From Oligoflexales bacterium (GTDB lineage: Bacteria > Bdellovibrionota_B > Oligoflexia > Oligoflexales > JAPPIL01), in the NCBI GenBank assembly GCA_965215515.1, contig OZ244057.1, positions 512,001-576,000 on the forward strand: 64,000 nucleotides of DNA. The letters run 5' to 3'. Numbering within the stretch: position 1 is the stretch's first letter; each line of letters begins with the position of its first letter. Position numbers and translations under genes: made by a program. Below, in pieces: positions 1-7,744 of this stretch. The notes below the pieces were generated by a model that did not search any database, was not told the origin of the DNA, and saw only the letters and a list, made by a program, of their open reading frames with translations.

Positions 1-2
1 AG

Positions 3-848
3 TCTTACAACGAACTGCTGTTGCGTGTGCTCACTATCTATCGTGAACAGCCTGCGCAGCGTGCTGCGTTGACTGTCCTGCTGGAGGACGTGGCAGAGAA
101 AGCCGAGTTGCACGACAGTTATTACGACTCGGTGGTGCTTGCGACGCTGGAGGGCAGTTTTATCGGGGCGGGGTTGCTGATGGTGACGCGTATGGGGGCA
201 AAGTTAATGCATCTGCTCGGTGCAGATGTCAGCAAACCGCGTTTTCGCTGGATTGCTGCATTGCTGGGGACAGGTGGGGCGATAGACACCGCAGAGGGTA
301 TACGCCTTTCGACCAGACAGCATTGGACACAACTCGGCAAGGTGGCGTTGGTGGGTGCTGCGGCGGGTTATGCTTATTATTTTGCGCAAAAGCTACGCAC
401 GCACAAACTGCCCCCCGAGGCTGTGTTGTTCGAGGTGCAGAAGGAGATTACACTCGACCTCGCCTATCGTGCCTGCGTTTTGGCGCACGAGGTCGACGAT
501 AGGGTTAGGGATAAGGACGAGCTACAGACCTACAGTGCCGAGCAGATACAGCAGGAACGTGAGGCGTTATCGGCTTTGGCCGCGCGGGTGAAGAAGATCG
601 GCCAGCAGGCTCAGCACCTGAGCGAGAGTGCTCCGAGCTTGCGTGGCAACCATCGGGTATCTTTACCGCACGCTTATCGGAACACTGACAATGGCCAGTG
701 TTCCCCCCAGGTAGCGACTGAGGGGCAAACTGTCGTCAGTATTACACCGCTGGTACAGGACATTGCCCACATCGCTGAGCAACTACAAGCGTGGAAGCGG
801 GCGATGGATGTTATTGAATATCGCCGTTTAACGCAACGAGGTAGCTGA
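3..848 (+). CDS. Hypothetical membrane protein, 5'-truncated by the window edge
   Basis: Frame is open from position 3; hydrophobic stretches (GSFIGAGLLMV, IAALLGTGG, VALVGAAAGYAYYF) and a coiled-coil-like C-terminal half; no recognisable family motif. Confidence 0.6.
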   Translation, partial: SYNELLLRVLTIYREQPAQRAALTVLLEDVAEKAELHDSYYDSVVLATLEGSFIGAGLLMVTRMGAKLMHLLGADVSKPRFRWIAALLGTGGAIDTAEGIRLSTRQHWTQLGKVALVGAAAGYAYYFAQKLRTHKLPPEAVLFEVQKEITLDLAYRACVLAHEVDDRVRDKDELQTYSAEQIQQEREALSALAARVKKIGQQAQHLSESAPSLRGNHRVSLPHAYRNTDNGQCSPQVATEGQTVVSITPLVQDIAHIAEQLQAWKRAMDVIEYRRLTQRGS

Positions 849-964: not shown

Positions 965-2884
965 ATGAGGTTTTTAGCGGTCGTGTTGGGATGCGCACTG
1001 TGGCATGGCGATGTGGTGCGCGCCAAGGGGCGGGGAGCGACGGGTTTAGCTCGGCGTGTTATCGGCATCGACTTGGGTACAACCAATTCGGCCATGGCCT
1101 GGGTGGACAAGAATGGTGCGCTGACTATCATTCGCAACCTTGAAGGTAGTAACATAACACCGAGTGTGGTTGACCTCGCTGAGGGAGGGGGTGTCGGTGA
1201 GTCTGCGTTAGAGTCGTTGGGGTTCTCGCCAGGGAGCGTAATTTTCTCGGTCAAGCGCCTTATGGGGCTTAGCTACGCTGAGTTGCAGGAGAGCAACCTC
1301 GCTGGAAACCTTCCCTACCAGGTCGCAGCGGGTGAAGGTGGAGTGGCCATCATAGAGGTTGACGGCCAGCAGTATTTGCCGCAGGAGGTTGCGGCGCGGG
1401 TCTTAGCGAAGCTCAAAGCAGATGCCGAAAGCGTGCTCGGCGAGGATATAAGTGAGGTGGTGATTACCGTCCCAGCTCGTTTTGATAATCGCCAAAAGCT
1501 TGCCACCAAGGAGGCGGGCGAGATCGCAGGCTTGCGTGTGCTCAGGCTGGTGGCCGAACCGACCGCCGCTGCTCTGGCGCACGGTCTCGGCAAGGGCGGG
1601 GAGAACCTTGTCGTTGTCTTCGATTTGGGAGGCGGCACGTTTGATGTCTCCGTTCTCGACATGGGGTATGCGGGTGAGGGAGAGGAGATGAGCGAAGTAC
1701 TCACCACCGAAGGTAACCCATTGCTGGGTGGCGATGACTTCGACAACAGGATTGTGCAACATCTGCTCGCTAAGTTGGAAAATAAACACGGGGTGGATGC
1801 AGTAGCCGAGTTGCGCAGTGACCAAGAGGCGATGGCTGAGTTAAAAATGGCGGCAGTCAAGGCAAAAGAGGCACTTACGGGCGGCAGAAGAGCGAATATC
1901 AGGATTAGAAATTTGGGGGAACAGTCGCTTACTGTCAGCGAGACTCTTACCCGTGTGGAGTTCGAAGGATTAATCGGTGATCTCGTTGCACAGACTATTG
2001 CCATGACCGAGAAGGCCTTGGCTAATGTCGAGATGGTTGCCGCGGATATCGACAAGGTGCTGATGGTCGGTGGTTCGACTCGTGTGCCCGCGGTCAGCGA
2101 GGCGGTGGAAGCACTGTTTGGCGTTGACAAGATAATCCGTGAGGACAATCCCGATGAAGTTGTGGCACTGGGTGCTGCGGCACTAGGGGGCGTGTTGGAG
2201 GGAAGTATCGAGGGTGTAACGCTGCTTGACACCACTTCCATGGATCTTGGTATCGGAGTGTTGGGAGGTAGATTCGAGGCAATCGTTGCGAAGGATACCA
2301 CCATCCCCACCGAAGCCCAGAAAACCTTTACTACCGCGAAAAATAACCAAACGTCGGTGACAATCCCTGTCTATCAGGGCGATGCCGAGCTGGTTGAGCA
2401 CAACGAGAAGATCGGTGAGTTTACTCTTGAGGGTATTCCACCTGCACCGCGTGGGATTCCGCAATTAGATGTGATCTTTGAAATAGATGCCAACAGTCTG
2501 CTTAAGGTCACCGCTAGGGATAAGGGCACAGGGAAGGAGAAGGAGATTACCGTAGCCGCCAATGCTATCGGTGAGGAGAGGATCGCGCAGATGCGCAAGA
2601 ATCTGGAAGAAAACAGCGAGAGGATCGAGGCTAAATTGAAATTGCTGGACGCCAGGGACAAGCTCAACAGCCTTTTGGCGCAGGCGGAAGGGGTGTTGAA
2701 TCAGGGAGGCACCGCAGCCAAATTACCGTTAGAGGCGAAGAACTCTTTAGAGCAGGCTATCGCCGCGGCCGAAAGCGCTGTCAACAGTAAGGATGTCGCG
2801 GCTATCGAGAAAGTCATCGCGGGTTTTGAGGCGCAGATCCACGCCGTGACTACTGAGCTCTACAGCCAGGGGGAACAGGGGTAG
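965..2884 (+). CDS. dnaK: Divergent Hsp70/DnaK-family chaperone with N-terminal signal-peptide-like extension
   Basis: Hsp70 motifs IGIDLGTTNS, VFDLGGGTFDVS, LGGDDFD, LMVGGSTRVP, NPDEVVALGAA, GIPPAPRG; AGGAG at 955-959 before ATG 965; leader MRFLAVVLGCALWHGDVVRA. Probably a paralogue, not the housekeeping copy. Confidence 0.93.
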   Translation: MRFLAVVLGCALWHGDVVRAKGRGATGLARRVIGIDLGTTNSAMAWVDKNGALTIIRNLEGSNITPSVVDLAEGGGVGESALESLGFSPGSVIFSVKRLMGLSYAELQESNLAGNLPYQVAAGEGGVAIIEVDGQQYLPQEVAARVLAKLKADAESVLGEDISEVVITVPARFDNRQKLATKEAGEIAGLRVLRLVAEPTAAALAHGLGKGGENLVVVFDLGGGTFDVSVLDMGYAGEGEEMSEVLTTEGNPLLGGDDFDNRIVQHLLAKLENKHGVDAVAELRSDQEAMAELKMAAVKAKEALTGGRRANIRIRNLGEQSLTVSETLTRVEFEGLIGDLVAQTIAMTEKALANVEMVAADIDKVLMVGGSTRVPAVSEAVEALFGVDKIIREDNPDEVVALGAAALGGVLEGSIEGVTLLDTTSMDLGIGVLGGRFEAIVAKDTTIPTEAQKTFTTAKNNQTSVTIPVYQGDAELVEHNEKIGEFTLEGIPPAPRGIPQLDVIFEIDANSLLKVTARDKGTGKEKEITVAANAIGEERIAQMRKNLEENSERIEAKLKLLDARDKLNSLLAQAEGVLNQGGTAAKLPLEAKNSLEQAIAAAESAVNSKDVAAIEKVIAGFEAQIHAVTTELYSQGEQG

Positions 2885-2905: not shown

Positions 2906-3568
2906 TCACGGGTGGGGGCGGTAGCGGTCGGGATGATAATCGATCAAGGCGGTATCGGGGTGAGCGAGATCGCTGCTGTCGCCGAAAGCATGCACGGTAA
3001 GCAAACCCTCCCGCACGGCTACTTCTTCGGCACGCGGCTCTGCCTTCATGTAAGCCAGACAACCGAACAGACGCATGCCCGCACAGCTCGGCAGATTGAT
3101 ATGCGGTGACGAAGCCTGCCAACGCGTATAACTGCGCAGATATTTGCCCAGAAAATACTTAACGTCACCCACCGTCAACGTTGTCTTGGTCTCGACGATG
3201 ACTATGTCCCGCTCCCCTGAAACGATGATGTCGATCTGTCCGTCTTCAGGCTTGCCGTCCTCATCCTGACAACGCACGCCGACATTGGGTAAGGCATCGT
3301 CGACGTGGAGATCGTGATGGCGGTTGAGGGTGGTAACGATGCCCGACTCGATGACAAACTCGGCTAGCTTGCCCCACATGTCGTACAACTTGCCCGTTTC
3401 TACCGCTACCACGCGGCGGTGCTCCTCCCGATCTTTGACACGCTGGGCATCGTACTCCTTGCGCGCCGCGATACGCTCCCCGCGCTCCTTCTCCAAGGCA
3501 GCCTCAAAAAGCGCGGTGAACTGTGCCAGCTTTTTGTCGATGTACGAGGGCTCTTTGTCCGCGCTCAT
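2906..3568 (-). CDS. DUF3782-like protein: coiled coil plus PD-(D/E)XK nuclease-like domain
   Basis: Charged coiled-coil N-terminus, WGKLAE segment, then QIDIIV...IVIVETKTTL nuclease-type motif. Confidence 0.65.
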   Translation of the reverse strand: MSADKEPSYIDKKLAQFTALFEAALEKERGERIAARKEYDAQRVKDREEHRRVVAVETGKLYDMWGKLAEFVIESGIVTTLNRHHDLHVDDALPNVGVRCQDEDGKPEDGQIDIIVSGERDIVIVETKTTLTVGDVKYFLGKYLRSYTRWQASSPHINLPSCAGMRLFGCLAYMKAEPRAEEVAVREGLLTVHAFGDSSDLAHPDTALIDYHPDRYRPHP

Positions 3569-3709
3569 CAGCGGGTGTCCTCGCTAATGATAAACATCAC
3601 CCCAGTCATTATACCAGCTCCGCGCCGACCAGCAAGTTTTTCTGCCCCCTACTCAGAGACATCTACATCGTTGCGAAAAGCTGGCAGGTGTATTATTTTC
3701 TCAGGTGGT

Positions 3710-4537
3710 ATGGGTTTCGTTGTTTTCGTTTTTCAATTTCTGCCGCGGCGGCTCATCTCCGCACTGATGGGCGTGTTGTTTCGCTTCCGTTGGCCGTCTC
3801 CTTTGCGTGGGGTGGTCTACGGGTTGTTTGTGCGCCTCACTCGTATCGATATGCGCGAGGCCGAGCGGGAACTCAACGTTTATCAAAGCATCGAGGAGAT
3901 TTTTTCTCGTCGTCTTGCACAGGGAGTGCGTCCTATTGCAGGCGAGATCTGTGCCCCCGTCGATGGTTTTTTGCACTGCTCGCAAGCACCGACAGGTATC
4001 CTCGGCTTTCAGGCCAAAGGCTACTACTATTCCTTACGGGAGTTGATTTATGGTGAGAGCGAGATTGAGTTTGATTTCGAGCCAGCTTGGTATATGACCT
4101 TCTACCTTGCCCCGCACAACTATCATCGGGTGCATTGTCCGCTGGCAGGGGAACTGCATGCCTTGCGTTGGATTCGCGGCGATAAGTGGCCTGTGCAGCA
4201 TGGTTTCCGCAATGCGGTGACACGTCTCTACGTGCGCAACGAACGCAAAGTATTTCGCCTGCGGCATACCGTCAGTGGGGGACAGATGTTCGTGGTAATG
4301 GTAGCGGCACTGGGAGTGGGCAACATGGTCGTTACCGCAGCCGAAACTCAGGAAAACAAGGCGGTGACTAAGTTCGATCCCGCCGTGCAACTCGCCGCAG
4401 GAGACGAGCTGGGCTACTTTACCTTGGGATCGACGGTACTTTTGATCTGCGATCAAGTGCTGGCCGACACTTACAGTTTTGTCGCGACAACACGAGATAT
4501 GCCTGTTACAATGGGGACTTCTCTTCTGAAAAAATAG
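3710..4537 (+). CDS. psd: Phosphatidylserine decarboxylase proenzyme
   Basis: FSRRL..GVRPI, APVDG, YLAPHNYHRVHCP and the LGST autocleavage motif; ATG 3710 preferred over the ORF-track start at 3419, which overlaps the opposite-strand gene. Confidence 0.92.
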   Translation: MGFVVFVFQFLPRRLISALMGVLFRFRWPSPLRGVVYGLFVRLTRIDMREAERELNVYQSIEEIFSRRLAQGVRPIAGEICAPVDGFLHCSQAPTGILGFQAKGYYYSLRELIYGESEIEFDFEPAWYMTFYLAPHNYHRVHCPLAGELHALRWIRGDKWPVQHGFRNAVTRLYVRNERKVFRLRHTVSGGQMFVVMVAALGVGNMVVTAAETQENKAVTKFDPAVQLAAGDELGYFTLGSTVLLICDQVLADTYSFVATTRDMPVTMGTSLLKK

Positions 4538-4550
4538 CCGCGTGTTAGGC

Positions 4551-5990
4551 ATGAGTGTGCAGAACAAAATTGATTTTCAGCCGCGTGATGTGCGAACGAG
4601 GATTATCTGGTCGTTTGCTCACGACATCGTCGATGAACAGCTTGCTGCAGTAGTCGCGGCGGCGCACTGCGATGCTCTGCGGCTGGTTTATTTTCAAGGC
4701 GCGCAGCACCACGGGGTGCGGTTTTTGCAAGCACTGACACGTATCCAAGGTGAGCAGCGCGTGCCTATCATGATCGACATAGCTTTGAAAATCAGAGCAA
4801 CGATCGCGGAGCTGCGCAAACCGCGCCAGCTTAAGGTGGGAGAGCGGGTCAACATCGTGCCGCGTCGCCGCGGCAAGCGCGGTGATCTCGTCATCACAAC
4901 TGACGAATGGGATGGCCTCTTCGTGCCCGAAGCGACCATCTATATCGGCACAGGCGACATCATGCTGAAATGCTTGCAGGTGGGGAGGGATGTTGTCACG
5001 GCAGAGGTGATACAGGGAGAAACAATCTACCCCCATGCTCCCCTCAAAGTGCCACGCACCGACAAAGAACTGCGAGCAAAGGATCTGACGCTGGCCGAGA
5101 TCGAGCAGTTTCTCGCTCTCGCTATCGACTTTATCGTCATCCCTGGTATCACGCTGCGAGAGGAAGTGCAAAAGTTTCGTGCTTTCCTGCACCGCAAGAG
5201 CAGTACACCGCCGTGGATGATTTTGAAAGTTGACACTTACAAGCTTTACCAAGAACTGCCACGTCTGATTGCGGAAGTCGATGGGGTGCTGATTTCACGG
5301 CGCGAGATCGCTCTGACCACCAACCCTGCCACTGTGCCTATGCTAGCTAAAGAAATTACTCAGCTATGTAGTGATCACTCCAAGCTGGTCATTACCGCCA
5401 GCGAAATTCTCGGCTCGATGCGCTACAGCCCAGTTCCAACACGTGCGGAGGTATCTGACATCGCCAATACAGTTATCGATGGCACGGATGTTATTGTGAT
5501 GCCCGAAGACCTGTGCACGAGCCGCTACTTTGAACGCTCGTTACGTCTTGTTTACGATGTCGTGGCCGATGTTGAAGCTAGCACCGTTGCCCCCAACTGG
5601 GACAAGCAAGCGCCGATAATTCGCAATGAATACGATGCCCTGGCCACCTCCGCGCTGCGCATGGCACAGCGTGTCAAGGCCAAAGCCCTGGTGTGTCTAG
5701 TGCGCAGTGGCAAGACGGTGTTGCGTCTGTCCCGTTTCGGCACCCCTATGCCTATCATCGCGGTAGCCTTCGACCGCGCGATTCTCAATCGCTTGCGCCT
5801 TGTCAGCGGTGTGCGCGGTATTTTGCTCGACAGCATCCCGTCTCTCGATGAGGTTCTGAACGTGGTCGGCGAGCAACTCAAAAAAGACAGTTTTCTGAAC
5901 AGCGGTGACCTAGTGATATTCATCACCATCTCACTGTCACCCATCGGTCACGCGGCAAGCAATCTCTTGACCGTACAGACAATTCGGTAA
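4551..5990 (+). CDS. pyk: Pyruvate kinase-family protein with divergent active site
   Basis: PTRAEVSDIAN..IDGTD, A/B/C domain layout, RSGKTVLRLSRF..PMPIIA, C-terminal SNLLTV; several canonical catalytic motifs altered (see findings). Confidence 0.8.
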   Translation: MSVQNKIDFQPRDVRTRIIWSFAHDIVDEQLAAVVAAAHCDALRLVYFQGAQHHGVRFLQALTRIQGEQRVPIMIDIALKIRATIAELRKPRQLKVGERVNIVPRRRGKRGDLVITTDEWDGLFVPEATIYIGTGDIMLKCLQVGRDVVTAEVIQGETIYPHAPLKVPRTDKELRAKDLTLAEIEQFLALAIDFIVIPGITLREEVQKFRAFLHRKSSTPPWMILKVDTYKLYQELPRLIAEVDGVLISRREIALTTNPATVPMLAKEITQLCSDHSKLVITASEILGSMRYSPVPTRAEVSDIANTVIDGTDVIVMPEDLCTSRYFERSLRLVYDVVADVEASTVAPNWDKQAPIIRNEYDALATSALRMAQRVKAKALVCLVRSGKTVLRLSRFGTPMPIIAVAFDRAILNRLRLVSGVRGILLDSIPSLDEVLNVVGEQLKKDSFLNSGDLVIFITISLSPIGHAASNLLTVQTIR

Positions 5991-5996
5991 CTAGCT

Positions 5997-7744
5997 ATGC
6001 AACAACAGTCACGTCTCTTTTGGTTTTTACGCACGTACTATTTTAGTCATCATCGCGTTCACTGCGTATTAACGACTATCATGGCATTGCTGCTCGGCGT
6101 TGTTTCGACGTTGTTCGCCGCCGCTCTCGGCCCTGCTATCTATGGTATGGTGTTCGCAGCGCCTGAGGCGAGTGTCGCGCTAGTTGCTTTGCTGGGCAAA
6201 AACTACGCCGCGGCGGCACAGGCCTTGTTCGGCATCACGACGATCAGTGCGACGCTACTAACCTGGTATCTGCCGTTATTTATTCTCGCTTGTGCCGCGC
6301 TGCGCACGGGTTTAATGGTCGGGCATGTCTTCATGTGGGAACGCTGTGGCGAGCGGGTAGGCAGGCGTTTGCGGGCGCAGTTAGTGCAGTTATTTCTGTC
6401 GCTCGATCCGCGGCAGCGCAGACAAAAAAAAAACTTCTCGCCGCAGAAAAAAACTTGGCCGCGACCATTGCCGTCGATGTGCGCATGGCACGTGATGTCA
6501 GTGCGGCGATTATCGGCGGCTTGACGCGTGAAGTAGCGCAACTGCTACTGATGTCGATGACGTTGGCACTGTTGTCGCCGCGTCTGTTCGCCATCTTTGT
6601 CGGTGGTATCGCCCCGCTGGTGCTGATATTGAAAAAACTCGGGCGTAAATTACAGCAACGTGCTACCTTGTCGTTAGACAACTACGCGACAATGACCGAA
6701 TGGCTGCAACAACGCTTGCTCGGTATTGAGACGATTAAACACTATCGCACGGAAGATCTAGAACAAGAAAAGTTTGCCCACTTAGCACGGGCACAGTTTA
6801 AAATTTTTCTGCGCACAGGCAAACTGCAAGCGATTATTCCGCAATTGACGGAAGTCTTGACCGTCACCGCGATGGCAGTAGCCCTATATTTTGCTTTGCA
6901 AGAATTACAGCACACCAGCACGGCGTTGGTGCTGGCTTTTTTCTCGACACTAGCACTGTTTGCCCAATCTTCCTCCCGCATCGGACGCTACTTCAATCAA
7001 ACCCGCGCGGGCAACGCCGCTATCGTGCGTATCTACACCTTAAAAACAGCATTAGAACAGAACACCAGCACCGCTCCACTACTAACAATTGTGCAAGGCT
7101 CACAGAAAGTACTCATCTGTGACAATATTACAGTGCACTTAGCACAACAGACAGTGCTACAAAATTTTTCATATCGTTTCGAAACAGGAGTGTTATACGG
7201 CCTACACGGTGTCGTCGGGGCTGGTAAATCGACTCTGCTACATGCCATTCTTGGTCTCCTGCCCTTGCAAGCGGGACGCATTTTTTTGCAACTGTCAGGA
7301 CCGCGGCAAAAAGGCAACGTCGCCCTGTGGTTGCCGCAAAAATTACCGCTGTGTGCAGGTGATGTTGCCAGCAATGTCTGTTACCCGTACCCTGAGCCAC
7401 ACGCGGCACGACTAACGCAAGCTTTGCTCTATGCTTGTGTACCGCGGGAGAAATGGGCTACGGTCATCGGTTTCGAACAGACCCAGCTTTCCGGCGGACA
7501 GGAGCAACGTCTCGGGATGGCACGACTTTTCTACCACAACGCCCCGCTCGTGCTGATCGACGAAGGGACATCGGCACTCGACCGACATACTGAACAGCAG
7601 GTGTTGCAGAACCTCAAAACCCTTACCCGACGAGGGATAATCGTCATCATGGCCGCCCATCGTCGTGCTGCACTGGCTAAATGCGATCGGGTGGTGGAAC
7701 TACCCCCCCCCTACTCCCCCCCCCCCCCCGATACAGACACCTAG
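5997..7744 (+). pseudogene. MsbA-like ABC exporter (TMD+NBD) split by a -1 frameshift at an A10 tract (6424-6433); may be slippage-decoded or an assembly error
   Basis: TM helices in ORF 5997-6524 continue in ORF 6290-7744 after the tract; Walker A GVVGAGKST, signature LSGGQEQR, Walker B LVLIDEGTSALD, H-loop AAHR. Confidence 0.8.

Follow-up and report, generated by a model that had tools for sequence, protein, structure and literature searches.

Why should a bacterial DnaK relative begin with what looks like a secretory signal, and on which side of the membrane would such a chaperone work? The question is raised by a gene, here called gene C, that lies near the start of the window, a stretch of 64,000 nucleotides of an Oligoflexales bacterium (assembly GCA_965215515.1, contig OZ244057.1, positions 512,001 to 576,000). 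We refer to the genome, a single contig of 2.18 Mb with 52.6% G+C, as G000 and to three relatives carrying related genes as G001, G002 and G003. The analysis revealed an Hsp70 with a conserved signal-like leader that is genetically tied to a giant J-domain envelope protein (gene A) and to a second, uncharacterised membrane protein (gene B). The reading we favour, with a probability of about 0.5, is that this Hsp70 is docked on the inner membrane at its cytoplasmic face.

The open reading frame of gene C (965-2884, forward strand, stop codon included) is intact and encodes 639 residues. A Shine-Dalgarno sequence, AGGAG (955-959, +), stands 5 nt ahead of the ATG at 965, and the ATG with a similar motif before it is kept in the orthologues of G001 and G002, bearing out the start for which an earlier note on this DNA had argued from the ribosome-binding site. 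The reading frame likewise agrees with that note in holding no ATG between this start and the IGIDLGTT motif, the in-frame GTG and TTG codons of this interval being located at 983, 986, 1013 and 1016. An upstream ATG at 944 (MIFIGVV...) was considered and rejected as the start, since the extension is not conserved in G001; similar letters found in other genomes coincide with the Shine-Dalgarno region.

From this start, the protein opens with a leader of 20 residues, MRFLAVVLGCALWHGDVVRA (965-1024, +), which divides into MR, FLAVVLGCALW and HGDVVRA, i.e., one basic residue, 11 hydrophobic residues, and then W-x-G-D and V-R-A. A search of 5.8 billion proteins returned 9 close homologues with 55 to 62% identity, followed by ordinary DnaKs at 47% or less, and all 9 proved to keep the leader, the point on which the earlier note had wanted its closest homologues checked. 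The clade alignment, in which the leader is present in 10/10 sequences, gave the pattern M-[KR]-hydrophobic(10)-W-x-[GS]-[DE]-x-x-[RL]-A, with L8, L12 and A20 in 10/10, W13 in 9/10 and D or E at position 16 in 10/10; no other G000 protein carries this pattern. Over the 20 leader codons compared among G000, G001 and G002, substitutions numbered 11, 10 and 7 at third positions, 5, 3 and 6 at first positions and 7, 5 and 2 at second positions, a coding-type pattern. Judged from these alignments, the leader of gene C is real and conserved as protein. Its VLGC letters could suggest a lipoprotein, a reading we rejected because the Cys occurs in 1/10 clade members only.

The remainder of the protein is a full-length Hsp70. 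Profile PF00012 matched it end to end (544.1 bits against a cut-off of 20.6; profile positions 1-598 of 599), and its best solved relative was E. coli DnaK (2KHO; 442 bits, versus 385 bits for BiP), with which it aligns over DnaK residues 3 to 588. On this alignment, the nucleotide-binding (ATPase) domain occupies residues 31-417 (1055-2215, +; DnaK residues 3-388) and is followed by the interdomain linker VTLLD (2216-2230, +; the counterpart of VLLLD at DnaK 389-393) and by a substrate-binding beta domain with its helical lid (2231-2881, +), all of them complete to DnaK residue 588. Residues D36, K97, E198, D220, T225 and D227 are invariant in the clade alignment and map through 2KHO to D8, K70, E171, D194, T199 and D201 of DnaK, which we take to be catalytic or nucleotide-binding residues, and R194 corresponds to R167, the J-contact arginine of DnaK, being present in gene C and in most clade members. 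The earlier note was thus right to call both domains complete and the acidic DnaK tail absent. Its list of drifted motifs stood in part: VPARFDNRQK, LVAEPT and VTLLDTTSMD are all present, but VAEPT is not specific to the paralogue and must be regarded as a lineage trait, because the canonical DnaK of G000 also has it (RIVAEPT).

That canonical DnaK, which the earlier note had proposed to look for, was found at G000:C1:951740-953518. It has 640 residues, starts MSKIIGIDLGTT, carries an acidic tail and scores 821 bits with PF00012; it shares 42% identity with the gene C product and has ~40 more C-terminal residues. The gene C product fell below the cut-offs of the DnaK equivalogs (NF001413, 585.2 versus 648; TIGR02350, 553.9 versus 822.55) and of the HscA models (NF003520, 452.9 versus 620; TIGR01991, 447.9 versus 708.55). 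In a tree, its clade is monophyletic (Shimodaira-Hasegawa-like approximate likelihood ratio test [SH-aLRT], 99) and lies outside the clade of Oligoflexales housekeeping DnaKs. These results indicated that the gene C product is a DnaK paralogue and not an ordinary DnaK duplicate. The housekeeping DnaJ, the single GrpE and a small J-protein are encoded elsewhere in G000. The canonical dnaK itself (L001, G000:C1:950240-955018) adjoins neither grpE nor dnaJ, the heat-shock genes of G000 being scattered, and its neighbours appear by eye to encode a leucine-rich-repeat protein, a ThyX-like protein and a GIY-YIG/exonuclease-like protein.

The two objections that the earlier note had raised against itself, namely, that gene C might be the only dnaK of the genome or that its homologues might lack the leader, both fail: G000 does have a canonical dnaK, and its leader is retained by every close homologue of gene C. 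We consider it very improbable that the true start is a downstream GTG, which would leave an ordinary cytosolic DnaK duplicate, or that the gene is decaying. Such an explanation could draw on the GTG codons at 1013 and 1016 and on the scores below the DnaK equivalog cut-offs; however, no Shine-Dalgarno sequence precedes these GTGs, the leader is kept as protein in 10/10 sequences with a conserved ATG and Shine-Dalgarno motif and with mostly third-position changes, the frame is intact with invariant catalytic residues, and G000 has lost a second, related module (described below) while keeping that of gene C intact.

With what does this Hsp70 work? Gene C is the last of three co-directional genes whose order, A-B-C, is kept in G000, G001 and G002. 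Gene A (G000:C1:506445-510194, +) lies wholly upstream of the window, and gene B (G000:C1:510191-512848, 885 residues) reaches into it with its 3' end (window 1-848, +); A and B share 4 nt of coding sequence (ATGA), and the gap between B and C is 116 nt. The 1249-residue product of gene A starts with a classical signal peptide (KGKGKK-IAHLLAVVSLLASPAAG-DDEPS), followed by a domain of ~740 residues that is predicted to be periplasmic, three conserved hydrophobic helices (residues ~772-902) and a helical tail of ~345 residues that ends in a J-domain. This J-domain, at the extreme C-terminus, scored 59.8 bits with PF00226 (cut-off, 27.8) and has its HPD motif within YHPDKNPGD, and a Foldseek search of the PDB matched the C-terminal model of A to J-domains only, with a probability of 1.00, and returned nothing for B at E <= 0.001. 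The gene B product likewise starts with a signal peptide; its helices, about six in number, are rich in glycine and weakly hydrophobic, and most of its mass is predicted to lie outside the cytoplasm. Behind their signal peptides, both A and B continue with acidic or neutral residues (DDEPS and GDSVVY, respectively).

Thus, the suggestion in the earlier note that this Hsp70 is partly uncoupled from co-chaperones has to be given up, since a dedicated J-domain protein is encoded, beyond the window edge, in the same conserved and operon-like cluster as gene C. Its remark that no dnaJ is adjacent is correct inside the window, but the second gene upstream of C, which ends 1.8 kb short of the window, encodes a J-domain; its claim that CIRCE is absent agrees with our scan, in which the window gave no match at <=3 mismatches. 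A possible further link between A and C is that they may covary. The HPD motif is intact in 9/13 A-type proteins and degenerate in the other four (DPL, HSN, HSD and HTD). The A tree places the DPL and HSN proteins as sister to the G001 protein (SH-aLRT, 100), and two Hsp70s in which the equivalent of R167 is replaced by L occupy the matching position in the C tree. This pairing of HPD loss with R167 loss, matched by tree position, is a hint of coupling between A and C and probably reflects a single evolutionary event. A complex prediction combining the A tail and J-domain (345 residues) with residues 21-639 of C scored 0.11, against a mark of 0.32, and, being run without controls, is evidence neither way. 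In A-family proteins (P0151-P0161, P0168-P0174), we also observed a conserved motif at the extreme C-terminus, after the J-domain region (IDAYLRQYLHGEGS in the A type and HYLKHGYFKGGGS in the A' type described below), which is missing from the G000 A protein, as this protein ends right after its J-domain.

Searches for known families returned little for these proteins. No Pfam family was found for B or for A', ESM Atlas gave no usable match for B, and PADLOC assigned none of the four proteins submitted (A, B, C and the downstream gene product) to an anti-phage defence family. A promoter and terminator scan of the cluster did not rise above shuffles (5 versus a mean of 5.3, and 12 versus 10.5). 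Overall, A, B and the leader-bearing Hsp70s are three undescribed protein families.

Relatives of the cluster proteins bear on where the chaperone domain resides. Both G001 and G002 carry a second, paralogous module, A'-B'-C', in which A' is without a J-domain and C' consists of a leader, a short charged loop, a true transmembrane (TM) helix (KD19, 2.44 and 1.95), a basic stretch and the ATPase, in that order. By standard topology reasoning, the ATPase of C' is predicted to be in the cytoplasm. Both the leader and the TM helix of C' end in W and then D, so either may be the counterpart of the leader of C. The small J-protein of G000 (L020, G000:C1:1372158-1375316; 1180-1683, +; 167 residues) has a similar layout of leader, short loop, TM helix (KD19, 1.81), very basic stretch and J-domain; its J-domain resembles that of gene A, and a probable lipoprotein gene follows with a 4-nt overlap. 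In G002, a J-protein of 487 residues, Jp, is encoded upstream of gene A (L024, G002:C1:688000-703000; 1524-2984, +), with a leader followed by a homologue of the post-helix tail of A and by a J-domain (41.7 bits), and with no TM helix; the leaders of Jp and of the G002 Hsp70 are near-superimposable (M1, K2, L4, L8, I9, W13, D16 and A20 identical). G003, which belongs to another genus, encodes an Hsp70 with a leader only (C3), on a contig without A or B.

In G000, the second module is present as fragments only, and because module 1 is intact there, we conclude that the latter is being maintained. The remnants are located in L042 (G000:C1:830000-840000), where a frame of 386 residues (4627-5784, -) is B'-like at its N-terminus (50% identity to B 9-136) and continues into an Hsp70 fragment, and an A'-like fragment of 201 residues (6262-6864, -) lies nearby; the large genes beside them have products that, by eye, resemble Cas3 and Cas5. 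Just downstream of the G001 Hsp70 (L017; 8090-8962, 9474-11165 and 11218-11691, -), a transposase-like gene of 563 residues is placed between a full and a truncated copy of a gene for a signal-peptide-bearing protein of 290 residues, an arrangement that looks like an insertion with partial duplication.

Between the leader and the ATPase domain of C is a basic junction of ten residues, KGRGATGLAR (residues 21-30; 1025-1054, +). Elsewhere in the clade, ~25 extra basic amphipathic residues (RRxLARKIMELN..LAGMNV) stand between leader and ATPase, a segment that is lost in G000. The net charge of the 15 residues after the leader is +4, and 12/441 signal-peptide-like N-termini of G000 (C included) reach at least +4. 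Instead of the neutral or acidic start of a mature exported protein, C has K at +1 and R at +3; at least two K/R residues in +1 to +5 were found in 22/441 of these N-termini. Six proteins of this lineage have a strongly basic stretch leading from their last hydrophobic segment up to the chaperone domain, namely, C, C3, Jp, C', the small J-protein and A, in which it follows the third helix.

Taken together, these features favour a docked Hsp70 at the cytoplasmic face of the inner membrane, where the membrane side, the part that the leader plays in docking, and the client are what we infer. Gene C would be the Hsp70 motor of a lineage-specific, three-gene envelope module, its leader would stay uncleaved and serve as a helix by which the chaperone is docked or anchored at the A/B complex or next to it, and the J-domain of A would trigger its ATPase at the cytoplasmic face. 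The Hsp70 might then hold, pull or remodel a polypeptide at this complex, with cytoplasmic loops, or A and B themselves during insertion or export, as candidate clients. The intact ATPase residues and R194 call for a compartment that contains ATP. In C' and in the small J-protein, the basic stretch and the domain behind it are presumably cytoplasmic, since each has a leader plus a true TM helix. The sharing of one leader by the Hsp70 and Jp, with W13 and D/E16 conserved, suggests a specific docking helix, with one docking site for both proteins, rather than a generic signal. The C3 leader ends AFA/P, and Pro at +1 blocks signal peptidase I.

Several observations weigh against this docking, and most of them speak for the alternative that C is truly exported. 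In that case, the Sec signal would be cleaved after A20, and A and B would leave the cytoplasm as well, the weak helices of A not stopping transfer; the set would work where ATP is available, either in a host cell after further secretion or in a periplasm that receives host ATP. A Sec signal has a basic n-region, a hydrophobic core of 7-15 residues, a helix breaker and small residues at -3 and -1, and the leader of C has this layout, with G at -6, A or V at -3 and A at -1 in 10/10 clade members. Its core of 11-13 residues, without any KD19 window of at least 1.2, is too short to cross a bilayer and typical of a cleaved signal, falling short of the ~18 or more hydrophobic residues of a TM anchor. 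All three cluster proteins start in the manner of signal peptides, Jp of G002 shares this leader without having a TM helix, and C looks like C' minus the TM helix. The topology that would place the J-domain of A in the cytoplasm by positive-inside reasoning is not secure, because the hydrophobic helices of A, like those of B, are marginal (KD19, 1.2-1.8) and were modelled with a predicted local distance difference test (pLDDT) score below 52, as opposed to 80-93 for the A tail and J-domain. At least one other probably exported G000 protein is also basic directly after its leader.

Cysteine content points in the same direction. C has no Cys outside the leader in 10/10 sequences, whereas Cys occurs in 18/18 canonical DnaKs examined; A is free of Cys after residue 22 in 25/26 homologues, tail and J-domain included; and B has exactly one conserved pair in 26/26, C762 and C837 (window ~477-479 and ~702-704), ~73-78 residues apart across the family and probably forming a disulfide in an outside-facing C-terminal domain. 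In G000, whose large frames contain 1.6% Cys, only 31/581 frames of at least 400 residues are without Cys after residue 45, and 27 of these 31 have a hydrophobic N-terminus. This pattern looks like an exported-protein signature, although the argument for C is weakened because C' of G001, predicted to be cytoplasmic, is also free of Cys. A genome that is small for its order (2.18 Mb versus mostly 2-7 Mb) and the presence of leucine-rich-repeat proteins are a hint of host association. On the other side, the bacterial periplasm is not known to hold ATP or to have a source of it; a search for the ATP/ADP translocase PF03219 found no match in G000 but is uninformative, as the control matched in no genome. 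The genome has only one GrpE, and K or R occurs within +1 to +3 in 9/10 clade members, basic residues early in the mature chain being a hindrance to Sec export in E. coli. A place at the cytoplasmic face is also suggested by the basic start of the A tail and by the way in which C' and the small J-protein are built, and a generic signal peptide would need neither W13 and D/E16 nor a leader shared with Jp. On balance, we find export of C possible but doubtful. The fuller proposal, that this bacterium sends a complete ATP-driven Hsp70 with J-domain proteins out through Sec, possibly as the pulling motor of an A/B translocon in a host-ATP-fed periplasm or in a host cell, seems to us unlikely.

An intermediate possibility is that the leader engages SecYEG or YidC, that the basic junction stalls transfer, and that the Hsp70, acting as an export chaperone, is thereby kept at the translocon's cytoplasmic opening. 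It would keep the large, Cys-free A and B proteins unfolded during export, the C-terminal J-domain of A recruiting the Hsp70 until the last moment. This arrangement would reconcile a signal-peptide-like leader with a basic junction and an ATP-dependent ATPase. It is in line with the size of A (1249 residues) and B (885 residues), their signal peptides and aggregation-prone hydrophobic helices, with the location of the J-domain at the extreme C-terminus of A, and with a second module in which the Hsp70 is TM-anchored and A' lacks a J-domain. However, it is a matter of pure inference, and the leader-bearing Hsp70 of G003 is encoded on a contig without A or B; we consider it improbable. Docking at the cytoplasmic face therefore remains the reading we prefer.

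The module has a narrow distribution. Among 5.8 billion proteins, only 26 belong to the A family and 26 to the B family, B homologues occur in 4/95 genomes of the order, these being the four genomes of one family, and C-type Hsp70s were found in 3/41 relatives searched. A B profile run against 1.84 billion representatives gave 75 matches at E <= 0.001, the weak ones covering the N- or C-terminal half. Six of the remote sequences were fetched, and all start signal-like, and 0/15 of those scanned had a credible Pfam family. A scan of metagenome contigs with the B alignment yielded 94 pattern matches, of which none was confirmed.

Downstream of C, the window continues with a convergent gene of 220 residues (2906-3568, -), which matched the nuclease-related NERD family only weakly (17.5 bits, below the cut-off) and which is not found at the matching position in G001 or G002 and hence is not part of the module. 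It is followed by genes of ordinary housekeeping context, namely, a phosphatidylserine decarboxylase gene (3419-4537, +; 125 bits) and a divergent pyruvate-kinase-like gene (4542-5990, +; 91.5 and 66.7 bits).

How does this system compare with those already described? Bacterial Hsp70 systems are regarded as confined to the cytoplasm, and the accepted view gives the envelope no ATP-driven chaperones. In our literature searches, the phrase 'periplasmic Hsp70' was not found in full text, and no description of a signal-peptide-bearing bacterial Hsp70 was found; in the portions searched of papers on DnaK paralogues and J-domain proteins (main texts), the terms 'signal peptide' and 'periplasm' were absent. 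A 2021 review of bacterial Hsp70 machines, in the sections available to us, mentions signal sequences for organellar Hsp70s only (PMC8215388). If the cytoplasmic-face reading is true, the A-B-C module would represent a new kind of membrane-docked Hsp70 machine, the sister modules of which use a true TM anchor. If instead C is exported, the rule of cytoplasmic-only bacterial Hsp70s would be overturned, and the set would give bacteria their first counterpart of BiP and its J-proteins of the endoplasmic reticulum (ER), the ERdj proteins, or of a parasite's exported Hsp70/Hsp40 set.

Like the canonical DnaK/DnaJ/GrpE system, C has the full series of nucleotide-binding domain, linker, substrate-binding domain and lid, with the catalytic residues and the R167 equivalent. 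It differs from canonical DnaK in having a leader and a dedicated J-protein, in being without the acidic tail and without Cys outside the leader, and in the changes from VPAYFND to VPARFDN and from VLLLD to VTLLD. ER BiP with Sec63/ERdj and mitochondrial Hsp70 with Pam18 combine an Hsp70 that has an N-terminal targeting sequence with a membrane-embedded J-protein, and A and C resemble them as a putatively targeted Hsp70 paired with a membrane J-protein at a membrane complex; unlike BiP, C is of bacterial DnaK descent, as its scores with the two solved structures indicate (442 bits for DnaK versus 385 for BiP), and has no retention signal. Hsp70-x with the exported Hsp40s of Plasmodium falciparum, and HopI1, the J-domain effector of Pseudomonas syringae, are cases in which an Hsp70 and/or a protein with a C-terminal J-domain is sent into a host cell. 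They belong to a eukaryotic parasite and to type III effectors, respectively, whereas C has only a Sec-type leader, and a host for it would be hypothetical. In DjlA, a TM helix followed by a basic juxtamembrane stretch holds the J-domain at the cytoplasmic face of the inner membrane; C differs from DjlA and from the small G000 J-protein in having, instead of a true TM helix, only a hydrophobic core of 11-13 residues.

The nearest described case is found in E. coli, where, according to the relevant sections of the same review, the specialised Hsp70 paralogue HscC has DjlB and DjlC as its membrane J-proteins and is believed to function at the plasma membrane (PMC8215388). As far as those sections describe it, HscC, like C, is encoded beside its own membrane-bound J-proteins and falls below DnaK equivalog scores. 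On the same partial account, the differences are that HscC has 550-580 residues and no N-terminal hydrophobic leader, whereas C, at 639 residues, is full-length and DnaK-like with a leader; that DjlB and DjlC are small and tail-anchored, whereas A is a signal-peptide-bearing protein of 1249 residues; and that the HscC system has no counterpart of gene B. To the extent that this account allows, A-B-C is best filed as a variant of the theme of a specialised Hsp70 with a membrane J-protein, standing closest to HscC with DjlB and DjlC.

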